DNA of 60,290 bases from a virus (taxonomy: Duplodnaviria; Caudoviricetes): IMG/VR virus record IMGVR_UViG_3300044833_000038, positions 1 to 60,290 of that record; one strand, 5' to 3'. Each line of letters begins with the position of its first letter. The first letter of the stretch is position 1. A model generated the notes under the pieces. The model worked only from the letters and a program-made list of their open reading frames with translations. It did not search any database and was not told the DNA's origin. Positions 23,628 through 28,269 of this stretch are shown in pieces. The translations under genes and the position numbers were made by a program.

Positions 23628-25622
23628 TTATGCAGCCTCGGTCATCGGCGTGAAGTACGGCACCGATTCACCATCGGCGGGGACCAGGACTGGTCCGAGC
23701 TCGTTGTAGGCGACGGTGTATCGGGTGCGCTTCAAGTCGGCTGCCGAATTGGAACCCGCCTCGGTCTTTAGCCGCTTGATGTCGGAGTCGTTCAGGTTAA
23801 GACCGGGATCATATGTCGCGGTCACCGGCGCAGACGTGCATTTACAGTTGCTAACCGTGATAGAATTGGCGCTGTACCAGCCCTCAACTGTTTCGAGGTT
23901 TAGAACATGCCCGCGCCATACCCCGACGCGTTTATCGATCAGTGTGTCGAGATGTACAGAGCTGGAAAGTCGTTCGCGAAGATCGGTGCCGAGCTTGGTA
24001 AAGACGGCGAATCTCTCAGGGTCGCGGTCAGAAACCGTGGGATCGAACTTCCGCGAAGGACATACCCAAGTACCCAGACCATTCCGATGCCCACCGACCT
24101 TTCCGGTCGTTACGCCGAAGGTCAGTCCGTCCAGGCGATGGCCAAGCATTACGGCGTCTCGCGACCGCTGGTCATTCGTTGGCTGAAGAAGCGCGGGTTG
24201 CCCATCCGAACCAGTCGAGAAGCCAGCCTGATCAAGGCGGCGGCGATGAGTCCGGCACAACGAGAAGCCCAGGCCGCCAACGCCCATGCTGCGACGAGGG
24301 GAAGGACCGTCGGCCGGGACGAGAAGTGGCGCCGCGCCGAGGCGATCGAGCAGCACGCCATCGCTGGCACGCGTCGCCGCAGCGCTGGTGAAATACTCCT
24401 CGGCCAATGGCTGCGTGAGCGCGGTATTGACTTCATCCCCGAAAAACGGGTCGACCGCTACAACGTCGACTTCGGAATTGAACCCGTCGCCGTGGAACTC
24501 CTCGGCGGCCACTGGCATTCGCAACCTAGTCGCCGACGCTTCCATGCCGAGCGCACGCACGACATCCTCAATGCGGGCTGGCACATGATCTTCATCTGGT
24601 CCGGTAACGACGCTCCGATCAGCCCTGACGGAGCTGACGAGCTTGTCTCCTATATTCAGGAGGCCCGCTTGCACCCAGCCACGGTCGGTCAGTACTGGGT
24701 GCTTCGGGGTGATGGAAAGCTGGTGGCCAGCGGCGGTGACGAGGGTGACAAGTTCACCCTCATAGTACCGCCGGTAACCGACCTGACTAGGAGGTCCAGA
24801 AACTAGCGTCCCCGGAACAACGCACCGTAAGTGTATCGGCCGCAACGTTTCTCGGTGATAGATCCGATCCGACGCCGCGACGCACAGCCCGCATACCCCG
24901 CCTGTGGAGAACTCTGGGTGGATGATGCGGCGGAACCCGATGATCCGGGCACCCGTGCGGGTCTTGGTTCGCGACCGGGTCGTGGCTTGGCCTTGATAGT
25001 CGATGATCGTCGCGTTCAAAGCTTGGTGCTCGGCGTCGCGCTGCGCGATCACCAGGTTGCCGTCCACAATGTCATCAAGACGGATGACCGAGGCCGCCCG
25101 CGCCCTGTCGCTGCTCGTACCGACTGACTCCGACCAGCGCAGCGTCCGCGCGGGCCGCTCAAGCAGCGATGCGTTGGTTGCGTCACTGGGTGTGACAGTG
25201 ACATCGATGTTCGGTTCGGTGTCCGACTCGCTGTAGGTGATGACCACCCGCTTAGCGTGTGGCACCCGGATGTCGTCGGGCAGCTTCGGCACGACAGCTG
25301 CGTTCACGCCCATCGACCGCAGCATCGTGGTCTGCGCTGCCGCCGCGGTCTGGGCGGTGGCCTTCTGCGCGGCCACCAGGATCGGGTCGGCCTGCTTCAC
25401 GAACGCGGCAACCTGGCGATCCTGATAGGGGTCGACTGGCAGCCACAACCGCTGCAGCACCGCCTTAGTGCGGGTAGTGATGCTCGCGATGGTCGCGGCG
25501 GTGGCTAGCGATACGCCGGCGACCGTGTACGCGACCGGGTCGGTGCCCTGGCTGGCCGCGATCAGCGCAGCCGCGGTCACCGCAGCGTCGGCCGGGGTGA
25601 CCGGTGCAGTCACGTCTGCCAC
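23628..25622 (-). CDS. MuF-like minor head protein (often annotated capsid maturation protease), intein-containing
   Basis: GFRRIIHPE..GVCGLC; removing the intein restores PIHLR-CKC (HxxCxC MuF motif). Confidence 0.85.
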   Translation of the reverse strand: MADVTAPVTPADAAVTAAALIAASQGTDPVAYTVAGVSLATAATIASITTRTKAVLQRLWLPVDPYQDRQVAAFVKQADPILVAAQKATAQTAAAAQTTMLRSMGVNAAVVPKLPDDIRVPHAKRVVITYSESDTEPNIDVTVTPSDATNASLLERPARTLRWSESVGTSSDRARAASVIRLDDIVDGNLVIAQRDAEHQALNATIIDYQGQATTRSRTKTRTGARIIGFRRIIHPEFSTGGVCGLCVAASDRIYHRETLRPIHLRCVVPGTLVSGPPSQVGYRRYYEGELVTLVTAAGHQLSITPKHPVLTDRGWVQAGLLNIGDKLVSSVRADRSVVTGPDEDHVPARIEDVVRALGMEASATRLRMPVAAEEFHGDGFNSEVDVVAVDPFFGDEVNTALTQPLAEEYFTSAAATRASDGVLLDRLGAAPLLVPADGPSPRRSMGVGGLGFSLCRTHRRRLDQAGFSTGSDGQPALLQPTNDQRSRDAVMLGHRLDGLTFGVTTGKVGGHRNGLGTWVCPSRKFDPTVSDRDPERFAVFTKLGTDLRERLSSSVHLDTLIDKRVGVWRGHVLNLETVEGWYSANSITVSNCKCTSAPVTATYDPGLNLNDSDIKRLKTEAGSNSAADLKRTRYTVAYNELGPVLVPADGESVPYFTPMTEAA
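23858..23899 (+). promoter_or_regulatory. Extended -10 promoter (TGATAGAAT) and SD (GAGGT) for the antisense endonuclease
   Basis: TGnTAGAAT at 23858-23866; GAGGT at 23895-23899, 7 nt before ATG 23907. Confidence 0.6.
23907..24806 (+). CDS. HTH + Vsr/DUF559-like (PD-(D/E)XK superfamily) putative homing endonuclease nested antisense in the intein
   Basis: Two HTH units (GKSFAKIGAELG; GQSVQAMAKHYGVSRPLVIRWLKKRG); SAGEILL..E..YNVDF..VAVELLGGHWH..GWHMIFIW nuclease pattern. Confidence 0.85.
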   Translation: MPAPYPDAFIDQCVEMYRAGKSFAKIGAELGKDGESLRVAVRNRGIELPRRTYPSTQTIPMPTDLSGRYAEGQSVQAMAKHYGVSRPLVIRWLKKRGLPIRTSREASLIKAAAMSPAQREAQAANAHAATRGRTVGRDEKWRRAEAIEQHAIAGTRRRSAGEILLGQWLRERGIDFIPEKRVDRYNVDFGIEPVAVELLGGHWHSQPSRRRFHAERTHDILNAGWHMIFIWSGNDAPISPDGADELVSYIQEARLHPATVGQYWVLRGDGKLVASGGDEGDKFTLIVPPVTDLTRRSRN

Positions 25623-26670: not shown

Positions 26671-28269
26671 CTAGGGAACCGCCGGCGGCCGCACGGGACC
26701 TGCGGGCTGCCCCGACGCCGACTGCGCCTGCCCGGGCGCCTTCTCGGTGACGTTCTCGGTGAGCCGGATGTTCGCAGGCGGCGGCGCGACCGTCAGCTGC
26801 GCGTCGAGCAGCTGATCACTCAGCAGCTCCTGATTGTTCTCGGCGGCCTCGTCGGGCGTGAAGTTCAGCAGCGTCACCATCTGGCGCTCCCGCGACAGTA
26901 GGCCCTTGGTTTTCGACACCGCATCAGACATCTCCGCCAAAGTGCGCAGCTTCAACGGCCCCCACAGAATCCGCATACCGTCCGCCCGCTGCGGGACGCC
27001 GGCGAACGCGAACGCGTAGCGCATCACCTGATGTAGCCCGGTGACGGTGCGGTCGCGGCGGTCGGTGGCCTTGTTGACCACACCCTCCTGCTGCGCCTCA
27101 GTGCCTTGGGCGGTCTGGTTCGCCGAATCCGGGATCACCATGTACATCGGGGTGCCGGTGCACAGCGCGAATTCCTTCATGTCGTTGATGATCGATTGCA
27201 GGACGCCGTTGATGTCGGTGATGGACGACTCCCAGAACGTGAAGCCCTTCGGAACCCGCCACAACGCCCCCGGGTCGGCCTTGAACACGTCATCCAGCGA
27301 TATATCCTCGGGATCGTCGCCCTCGTCTTCACCCTCTTCGTCGCCGATGATCGCCCGCTGCCGAAACGACTGATACCAGGTGATGACGATCCGCTGCAGA
27401 ATCGTGTCGTTGATCCGGTCCAACAAGTCCAGGTTGGGCTCGAACTCGCCCATCCCCCGCGCGTTCACGAACCGCACGATCGGCACCGGGCCCACCCCAG
27501 CGATCTCCGGCATCTCCGTCGGCGGACCGTCCCACTCGAACCCGGCCGCGCTGTGCAACTCGTAGGACGTGTTGATCAGCCCGTACGTTTTGCGGGACGC
27601 CTCGTAACGTTTCCCGTCGAGGAACAGCCACGCCTTCTCCACCTGCAACACCGGGTCGAAACCGATCTTCACCGCGGCCCGCAACTGGTTCGGGTTGAGC
27701 TGATCGGGCTCCCCGATGCACCAGCGCGGGTCCTCCGCCGTGATCAACGGTGTCTTGTCCAGCGCGTCCGGGTCGGCCGGCACCGCCATCAGGTAGGACT
27801 CCGACATCACGAACAGGTACGCCAGCGCATCCTTGATCGCGGCCTTCAGGTTCGACTTCTCGAAGATGTCGGCGGCGATGTCGTCGCCCTCAGGGTCGCT
27901 GTCCACCGTCGTCGACACGCCGTTGACCGTCATCCGGTCCAGAATCGACTGGATCGCGATCGGCGCCAGACACGCCCGCGCCTTGCGTAGCACCTCCTGG
28001 AAGGTGTGCGAATAGCCCTCCACCACCTGTGGCAGCGGCGGCGACCCGATGTAGTACGACCACAGCAGGTTCATCCGCTGCCGCCGCGTCAGATAGCGGC
28101 GCGCCGGGCGCTGCTTCTGATTGGGCACCGCCAGGTCGACGTCGAATGTGTGGTCACGCTCATTGAAGCGCGCCATCAGATAGTTCAGCCACCACGCCGG
28201 GGACTGCGGGACCTTAGCTTCCTGCTCCATTGAGAGCGTCGGCTCGACGGCCTGGAGGGCTAACGTCAC
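26671..28269 (-). CDS. Portal protein (SPP1 gp6-like)
   Basis: Follows the terminase; VPIVRFVN..GEFEP..LLDRIN..FRQR. Confidence 0.9.
   Translation of the reverse strand: MTLALQAVEPTLSMEQEAKVPQSPAWWLNYLMARFNERDHTFDVDLAVPNQKQRPARRYLTRRQRMNLLWSYYIGSPPLPQVVEGYSHTFQEVLRKARACLAPIAIQSILDRMTVNGVSTTVDSDPEGDDIAADIFEKSNLKAAIKDALAYLFVMSESYLMAVPADPDALDKTPLITAEDPRWCIGEPDQLNPNQLRAAVKIGFDPVLQVEKAWLFLDGKRYEASRKTYGLINTSYELHSAAGFEWDGPPTEMPEIAGVGPVPIVRFVNARGMGEFEPNLDLLDRINDTILQRIVITWYQSFRQRAIIGDEEGEDEGDDPEDISLDDVFKADPGALWRVPKGFTFWESSITDINGVLQSIINDMKEFALCTGTPMYMVIPDSANQTAQGTEAQQEGVVNKATDRRDRTVTGLHQVMRYAFAFAGVPQRADGMRILWGPLKLRTLAEMSDAVSKTKGLLSRERQMVTLLNFTPDEAAENNQELLSDQLLDAQLTVAPPPANIRLTENVTEKAPGQAQSASGQPAGPVRPPAVP

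Follow-up and report, generated by a model that had tools for sequence, protein, structure and literature searches.

A phage head-gene intein with a putative homing endonuclease encoded on its opposite strand

Homing endonucleases (HENs) encoded antisense to inteins have been described before. VSR-like endonucleases of this kind were reported in full inteins of actinobacteriophages by Gosselin, Arsenault and Gogarten (bioRxiv 10.1101/2025.01.02.630785); the main text of this preprint discusses its cluster 47 (Affeca, Keitabear, Sedona) under endonuclease VII-like HENs and cites Gorbalenya 1998 and Gogarten 2002 for antisense LAGLIDADG HENs inside inteins. The EDxHD homing endonuclease family was presented with I-Bth0305I by Taylor et al. 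2011 (PMC3239194), and fractured genes, in which a free-standing Vsr-like HEN gene lies between the halves of a split intein, by Dassa et al. 2009 (PMC2677866). Here, we analyzed the IMG/VR record IMGVR_UViG_3300044833_000038 (Duplodnaviria; Caudoviricetes), a complete virus record of 60,290 bp with a guanine-cytosine (GC) content of 63%, the whole of which is referred to as the window. A head gene on its minus strand is interrupted by an intein at 23847-24824, and the plus strand of the same DNA holds an open reading frame (ORF) for a 299-amino acid (aa) protein. Very probably, this is a mobile intein with splicing coded on one strand and homing on the other within a single stretch of 978 bp, for which we infer expression, splicing, cleavage and target. 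The features of the locus, in positions of the window, are as follows.

23628-25622, minus strand: host gene, MuF-like/head-morphogenesis precursor of 664 aa (from the ORF list)
24825-25622, minus strand: N-extein coding part, 266 aa, with the C-terminal end ...RPIHLR
23847-24824, minus strand: intein, 326 codons, starting CVVPG and ending TVSN, then CKC (from the translation)
24630-24824, minus strand: N-terminal Hint lobe, intein residues 1-65, AlphaFold2 (AF2) pLDDT (predicted local distance difference test) 77-94; also codes for the C-terminal ~58 residues of the nuclease on the plus strand
23961-24629, minus strand: sense-frame linker, intein residues 66-288, an open, apparently unstructured antisense read-through of the nuclease gene
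23847-23960, minus strand: C-terminal Hint lobe, intein residues 289-326, with the GHVxNL block and terminal SN, pLDDT 78-91
23628-23846, minus strand: C-extein coding part, 72 aa and stop, beginning CKC
23907-24806, plus strand: antisense gene for a 299-aa protein, putative homing endonuclease (from the ORF list)
23925-24035, plus strand: first helix-turn-helix (HTH) module, residues 7-43, with helices 7-18, 23-30 and 34-43; Pfam HTH_38 at aa 15-33; match to 2lvs over profile positions 9-97
24099-24191, plus strand: second HTH module, residues 65-95, with helices 65-70, 75-82 and 86-95; Pfam HTH_23, HTH_58 and HTH_28 at aa 62-102
24384-24671, plus strand: nuclease core, residues 160-255, with candidate catalytic E162 (24390-24392), D188 (24468-24470) and H204 (24516-24518)

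The intein splits the HxxC/xC site of the head gene, and its excision restores the H-x-x-C-x-C motif in a spliced host sequence of ...IHLR↓CKC... (arrows mark junctions), the junction at the intein C-terminus being ...VSN↓CKC. C1, T39, H42 (block B TxxH, here TPKH) and N326 are invariant in 16/16 aligned sense inteins, and C1, the +1 Cys and the insertion site itself are the same in all 23 loci of the first set described below. The AF2 model of the sense frame, built from 16 sequences, is confident in residues 1-65 and 289-326 alone. Searched with Foldseek, these folded parts gave top matches that were all inteins, the first being 2imz (probability 1.00, E 9.3e-4); the Pfam Hint matches of the frame were weak (E 0.02-0.09), and neither Pfam nor Foldseek revealed a nuclease in it. 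Judged by C1, TxxH, the Asn/+1 Cys pair, the modelled Hint fold and the precise in-frame insertion, 23847-24824 can be classified as a class 1 (Hint) intein that is predicted to splice. The preliminary description of this DNA, made from the letters alone, had named a complete Hint-type intein in the HxxC-x-C motif, with no LAGLIDADG or HNH motif in its central ~200 aa, and this was borne out; a nuclease fold of the sense-frame linker, which would have spoken against its view, was not found.

The plus-strand ORF starts with an ATG at 23907 and ends at 24806, 18 nt short of the intein's far boundary. It occupies intein codons 7-306, entirely within the intein, and shares its codon register with the minus-strand ORF because both have triplets starting at positions divisible by 3. 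Its first ~18 codons are antisense to the C-terminal Hint lobe and its last ~58 to the N-terminal one. Modelled by AF2 from a 111-sequence alignment (pLDDT 92.8, predicted template modelling score 0.75), the protein begins with two HTH modules of three helices each, continues through a helical linker into an alpha/beta nuclease core and closes with a beta-hairpin; the C-terminal ~58 residues, coded opposite the N-terminal Hint lobe, form a helix and this confidently modelled hairpin. The top Foldseek match was 3r3p, the catalytic domain of I-Bth0305I (probability 1.00, template modelling score 0.64 over the target, E 2.5e-3), and the family profile matched 3r3p (3.1e-5), 3hrl (7.1e-5), the tandem HTH structure 2lvs (2.4e-8) and, weakly, Vsr 1cw0 (0.052). 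In the 111 sequences, D188 is invariant and E162, E197 and H204 are conserved in at least 90%. In a hidden Markov model (HMM) alignment to 3r3p, D188 coincides with D196A and H204 with H213A; D196 and H213, mutated in this crystal, are regarded as catalytic by its authors (PMC3239194). The Glu, Asp and His positions of the motif (Vsr E25, D51 and H69) are occupied by E162, D188 and H204. The preliminary description had drawn the same picture, with a 299-aa ORF at 23907-24806 in the register of the intein, two HTH units followed by a Vsr-like nuclease, and the last ~60 codons antisense to the splicing region, and coordinates, model and matches agree with it.

The protein belongs to a large family, with 2388 related cluster representatives in the protein library at E<=1e-3, of which 1269 reach E<=1e-10, and PHROGs gave weak matches confined to the HTH part. 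Homologues of the ORF are often picked up by gene callers; that of Nocardia puris (59% identical) is named "helix-turn-helix domain-containing protein" at NCBI. The antisense ORF is annotated in 0/10 of the GenBank phage records behind L001-L003, L024 and L080-L085, among which the intein is annotated in Escherichia phage Snoke only.

Selection was compared between the two strands in two clades of relatives: L006-L010, five gapless sequences that are 80-92% identical (10 pairs, 327 codons), and a Guernseyvirinae clade of seven sequences from phages of enterobacteria (21 pairs, 272 codons). The ratio of nonsynonymous to synonymous change (omega) was as follows.

L006-L010, center (sense codons 100-285): sense 0.99, antisense 0.22
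L006-L010, N-terminal Hint lobe (0-50): sense 0.21, antisense 0.52
L006-L010, C-terminal Hint lobe (290-327): sense 0.21, antisense 0.32
Guernseyvirinae, center (110-235): sense 1.01, antisense 0.16
Guernseyvirinae, N-terminal Hint lobe (0-60): sense 0.34, antisense 0.57
Guernseyvirinae, C-terminal Hint lobe (235-272): sense 0.07, antisense 2.06

In two independent clades, the central plus frame is under purifying selection and the intein frame there is neutral. Homologous inteins thus keep the plus ORF and select against changes in it; the preliminary description had named the opposite outcome as one that would refute its view. In the center of L006-L010, we counted 710 nonsynonymous and 241 synonymous differences for the sense frame and 434 and 517, respectively, for the antisense frame; differences at sense codon positions 1/2/3 numbered 537/160/254, sense position 1 being antisense position 3. 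Constraint on the Hint lobes is stronger in the sense than in the antisense frame of both clades (sense omega 0.07-0.34), and in the N-terminal lobe omega stays below 1 in both frames of both clades. The same pattern appears between the window and its nearest relative L004, with identities of 56% antisense and 40% sense in the center and of 77-79% sense and 55-62% antisense at the ends, and third-codon-position GC changes strand within the intein.

Searching with the plus protein by tblastn, we found 133 phage records, in which the match always lies within a head gene on the opposite strand; the hosts are Salmonella (65 records), Gordonia (15), Pseudomonas (15), Klebsiella (8), Escherichia (6), Vibrio (4) and Aggregatibacter/Haemophilus. 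Phages of Pantoea also carry the element. A first set of 23 loci (the window and 22 relatives; GC 0.43-0.68) has both frames open, in the same register and at the same intein site in 23/23 cases, antisense stops being limited to the outermost intein codons. A search of bacterial genome contigs with the single plus protein gave no loci, and an alignment-based search of them provided a second, independent set of 55 loci (L025-L079) from 55 bacterial species. Here the minus frame is open in 54/55, the sense-intein HMM matches 55/55, and most junctions read H-P-x↓C...[H/S]-N↓C-x-C. The species labels comprise Actinomycetes, Chloroflexi-type, Proteobacteria, Bacteroidales/Chitinophagaceae, Gemmatimonadota, one cyanobacterium, one Firmicutes metagenome-assembled genome, candidate-phyla bacteria, Omnitrophota and Armatimonadota, and GC of the element-bearing loci overall extends from 0.40 to 0.69. 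No free-standing nuclease gene was seen among the 78 loci (23 + 55), all of which have it inside an intein at the homologous site.

The probability that one frame is open, given the protein of the other and the extein codon usage, was calculated from small codon tables. For the window, it was 1.8e-3 for the antisense and 1.2e-2 for the sense frame; for Aaphi23, an AT-rich relative with 43% GC and 319 open codons, it was 8e-10 and 2e-6, and over the loci it ranged from 8e-10 to 5e-2 (antisense) and from 2e-6 to 0.13 (sense). A few loci may represent stages of decay: L054 has two stops in the intein frame, L028 and L058 one stop each in the nuclease frame, and the nuclease ORF is shortened to 143 codons in L075 (with an intein of just 194 aa) and to 130 codons in L079. 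L029, L030, L037 and L040 display variant junctions, D-H-P-N-G-R↓C ... T-H-N↓C-[A/T]-x-x-P, and their sequence suggests a variant host site or another host protein for the same element.

Candidate expression signals of the plus gene overlap the codons of the C-terminal splicing lobe.

23895-23898, plus strand: Shine-Dalgarno (SD)-like GAGG that precedes the ATG by 8 nt and lies opposite the Asn-Leu codons of GHVxNL; putative function
23858-23866, plus strand: extended -10-like box TG-n-TAGAAT within the intein, antisense to its last codons (P = 0.022 when the sense protein and the codon usage of the exteins are taken as given)

The plus gene starts on the triplet opposite the GHVxNL His codon in 21/23 loci (17 ATG, 4 GTG) and in 37/51 distinct loci of the second set. 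GAGG, GGAG or AAGG stands at -12/-13 (8-9 nt before the start) in 19/23 loci and at -16/-15 in one more, and an SD-like motif was present in 40/51 loci of the second set. A -10-like hexamer, defined as at least 5/6 matches to TATAAT, which in most loci precedes the start by 46-54 nt, was found in 16/19 distinct sequences compared to 4.8 expected from synonymous resampling, and in 32/51 of the independent second set compared to 12.5 expected. The TATAAT often stems from Ile-Ile coded as ATT-ATA, which are presumably unusual codons for GC-rich genomes. We take the -10-like box, the SD-like motif and the start inside the C-terminal splicing codons as a hint from sequence, a lead and not a finding. 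The nuclease gene is the sole credible plus-strand gene within the ~30 kb of structural genes (852-30411), every one of which is on the minus strand. Transcription of this gene would collide head-on with that of the late operon.

Contigs from four soil-metagenome runs were aligned to the host gene, and three of them, from related alleles, join the exteins while skipping net 978, 978 and 975 nt, which is exactly the intein or the intein minus one codon. The contigs measure just 151-366 nt and share ~80-90% identity with the window. Two of them belong to the run that may have yielded this DNA and the third to another sample; together they indicate that intein-less targets exist in the same kind of habitat. 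The intein-less junction given in the preliminary description agrees with the window: 24825-24839 and then 23835-23846, each reverse-complemented, yield that string.

Our model of the element is as follows. On the minus strand, the precursor of the head protein would be translated through the element, residues 1-65 and 289-326 would form the Hint splicing domain, and the ~220 residues in between would be an unstructured read-through, required merely to stay free of stops; splicing would then restore the HxxCxC of the head protein. On the plus strand, in the same register, the 299-aa protein with its two HTH modules and Vsr/EDxHD-type core would be made and may bind the uninterrupted HxxCxC-coding site via the HTH modules. 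Most likely it would nick or cut intein-less head-gene alleles in co-infecting phages, and recombinational repair from the intein-bearing genome would copy the whole element in (homing). Because the candidate -10 box, the site resembling a ribosome-binding site (RBS), the start and the stop are all within the intein, the cassette could move as one piece. The two-strand design for splicing and homing put forward in the preliminary description has gained support from conservation, selection and predicted folds, with expression and cleavage as its presumed steps. That description further suggested that such a design would uncouple the timing of the nuclease from late gene expression. A wider proposal is that all these loci, far from being a rarity of actinophages, go back to a single ancient mobile element with obligate dual coding, which occupies the head-gene HPx↓CxC site across many phyla and the splicing codons of which double as -10 box, RBS and start of the nuclease gene; this seems to us evenly balanced between true and false. 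If true, the motifs for splicing on one strand would have co-evolved with the signals for expression on the other, and the element would be self-contained within its boundaries.

Several points weigh against a mobile intein with its own antisense homing nuclease. Based on the HMM alignment only, the final Asp of EDxHD (Vsr D97, I-Bth0305I D222) aligns to His213 of the window protein, near which Glu215 and an invariant Arg216 are located. The Pfam match to REase_MTES_1575 (PF18741) is below the gathering cut-off (28.7 vs 38.2 bits, E 1.4e-6), as are the matches of the ORF to several HTH families; precomputed Pfam lists name PF18741 for 10/11 homologues. A His equivalent to H204 is absent from several relatives, namely the Guernseyvirinae (L002 and L080-L085, with Snoke among them), Aaphi23 (L001) and Affeca (L024), whose G-G-x-W-H motif is altered. 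The selection tests were made on relatives and with pairs that are non-independent within a clade, the window's own nearest relative being 66% DNA-identical and too diverged for an estimate of synonymous divergence. The two AF2 models rest on alignments of uneven depth, 111 sequences for the plus frame and 16 for the sense frame. The residue before the terminal Asn of the intein is Ser, and this penultimate residue is usually His in inteins. Concerning expression, the -10 and SD statistics ignore phylogeny and the extein codon tables are small. A consensus promoter and terminator scan of the window region gave no sigma-70-like promoter; the same scan showed one strong plus-strand site inside the intein of Aaphi23, with a total count of 4 vs 2.8 +/- 1.7 in shuffled sequence, not above it, and no plus-strand site in Snoke. 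Standing alone among minus-strand structural genes, the ORF would need to be expressed antisense to the late operon.

In part, these points suit another explanation, which we consider unlikely: the plus ORF is real and selected, but it is not, or no longer, the homing nuclease of this intein and serves instead as a DNA-binding regulator or as a nuclease for competition or exclusion between phages, with the intein inherited mostly vertically. Two HTH modules would also suit a regulator, the final Asp of EDxHD is unmatched in the window, and most VSR-like groups have patterns suggestive of vertical inheritance, according to the main text of bioRxiv 10.1101/2025.01.02.630785. Since the Guernseyvirinae have no H204-equivalent His and yet an antisense omega of 0.16, some lineages may conserve a function other than cleavage; in the relatives of this type, the protein either can do without the His or is selected for a different role. 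However, the window protein keeps E162, D188 and H204, its best structural match is a proven homing endonuclease, and empty alleles co-occur in soil samples. Moreover, 78/78 family members at the DNA level lie inside the intein at the homologous site and none is free-standing, which fits a homing partnership.

Two further explanations deny a function to one of the frames. GC-rich genes often have an open antisense frame in the same register, and in a genome of 63% GC with a Pfam nuclease match below cut-off, the plus ORF might be a chance antisense shadow with a spurious likeness to nucleases. This we find hardly credible and reject, as it is contradicted by openness (319 codons in Aaphi23 at 43% GC, P 8e-10), by an antisense omega of 0.16-0.22 where the sense frame is at ~1, by the fold (pLDDT 92.8 and a match to I-Bth0305I) and by family size (1269 related cluster representatives at E<=1e-10). 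Conversely, the sense-frame linker could itself be a functional endonuclease or another folded domain, with the plus ORF being secondary, and short sense strings such as FHGDG and IED are indeed conserved across 16 inteins. These strings, however, lie opposite the invariant YNxD and VAVE motifs of the plus frame, in line with the earlier view of FHGDG as the antisense shadow of the nuclease core. In addition, sense omega amounts to 0.99-1.11 over codons 100-285, residues 66-281 have a pLDDT below 50 although the same 16-sequence alignment is deep enough to fold the Hint lobes, and neither Pfam nor Foldseek gave a nuclease match; a functional linker is therefore rejected as well and deemed extremely improbable. 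Of these readings, a mobile intein with an antisense homing nuclease is the one we prefer.

The host gene is situated between a portal-like gene (26671-28269) on one side and scaffold-like and capsid-like genes on the other. Its protein matched phrog_1522 "head maturation protease" (9.3e-49), phrog_15127 "head protein" and phrog_758 "head morphogenesis" (7.5e-4), and homologous genes in GenBank phages are labelled MuF-like, minor capsid or head morphogenesis. A Pfam MuF domain (phage Mu F / SPP1 gp7 family) was found neither in the whole host protein nor in either extein at E<=1, and megablast of the gene against the phage collection gave zero matches. Thus, the MuF-like label of the preliminary description holds on the basis of the PHROG head-protein families and the annotations of homologous phage genes, but not at the level of the Pfam domain. 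Such genes are often called hypothetical or otherwise named; two Salmonella phage records carry the name "NAD+--asparagine ADP-ribosyltransferase".

The element illustrates that protein-coding mobile DNA can hold two proteins in one stretch read both ways, one frame needing just freedom from stops. For research on overlapping genes, it offers many independent lineages (GC 0.40-0.69) in which a long antisense overlap is clearly under selection that differs between the strands, a textbook-quality case of dual coding with a wide, apparently unreported distribution. Splicing and homing are separately mutable in this natural case, and because one frame can carry a stop codon that leaves the other protein unchanged, the homing cycle can be tested directly. 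For annotation, it matters that the nuclease gene was overlooked in all 10 inspected GenBank phage records.

The opposite-strand architecture of intein and nuclease is already described and not a new principle. The preliminary description had left open whether such an arrangement was known, and the answer is the report on actinobacteriophages (bioRxiv 10.1101/2025.01.02.630785), the sole description found by a literature search of sources other than subscription journals and supplements, which gave no account of the element outside actinophages. PMC8966425 was considered as a prior report and discarded, since "opposite strand" has another meaning there. As in Gosselin et al. 2025, the window has a full, non-split intein, an HEN region without recognizable sense structure and a VSR-like ORF antisense to it, and thus shows the architecture of an HEN ORF opposite a contiguous intein. 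In their case, as given in the main text, an AlphaFold model gave Vsr (1CW0) as a match, HHpred pointed to 3R3P, and minor capsid proteins are among the hosts of their non-canonical inteins. Gordonia phage Affeca (L024 1501-2343) carries a MuF-like gene with this intein and an intact 280-aa antisense Vsr-like ORF; cluster 47 of the preprint, in which Affeca is named, might be the same MuF intein. Their survey was limited to PhagesDB actinophages, whereas the element family of the window is spread over many phyla, and their main text contains no synonymous/nonsynonymous test, no phages of other phyla and no overlap of the ORF or candidate expression signals with the splicing blocks.

The antisense LAGLIDADG cases follow the same opposite-strand principle, but according to the preprint they involve another nuclease family and other hosts, Synechocystis dnaX and a Chloroflexus SpoVR-like protein. 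With I-Bth0305I, as described in PMC3239194, the window protein shares a C-terminal Vsr-like core with conserved E, D and H, modular N-terminal DNA binding and the tie to self-splicing elements of phages. In contrast, I-Bth0305I is the product of a sense-strand gene in a group I intron, carries NUMOD-like motifs in place of HTH modules and has Asp222 where the window has His213, and the window family adds a C-terminal beta-hairpin coded opposite the N-terminal lobe of the intein. The fractured genes, as outlined in PMC2677866, likewise have the Vsr-like gene within an intein as a separate ORF and not as an in-frame domain, but there the intein is split by the insert into two halves that splice in trans. 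In the window, the intein is unbroken, because its frame reads through the antisense strand of the nuclease gene; it is therefore contiguous and the DNA is dual-coding. Compared to all these systems, the per-strand selection test, the spread over many phyla and the -10-like box, RBS-like site and start embedded in C-terminal splicing codons are possibly new.

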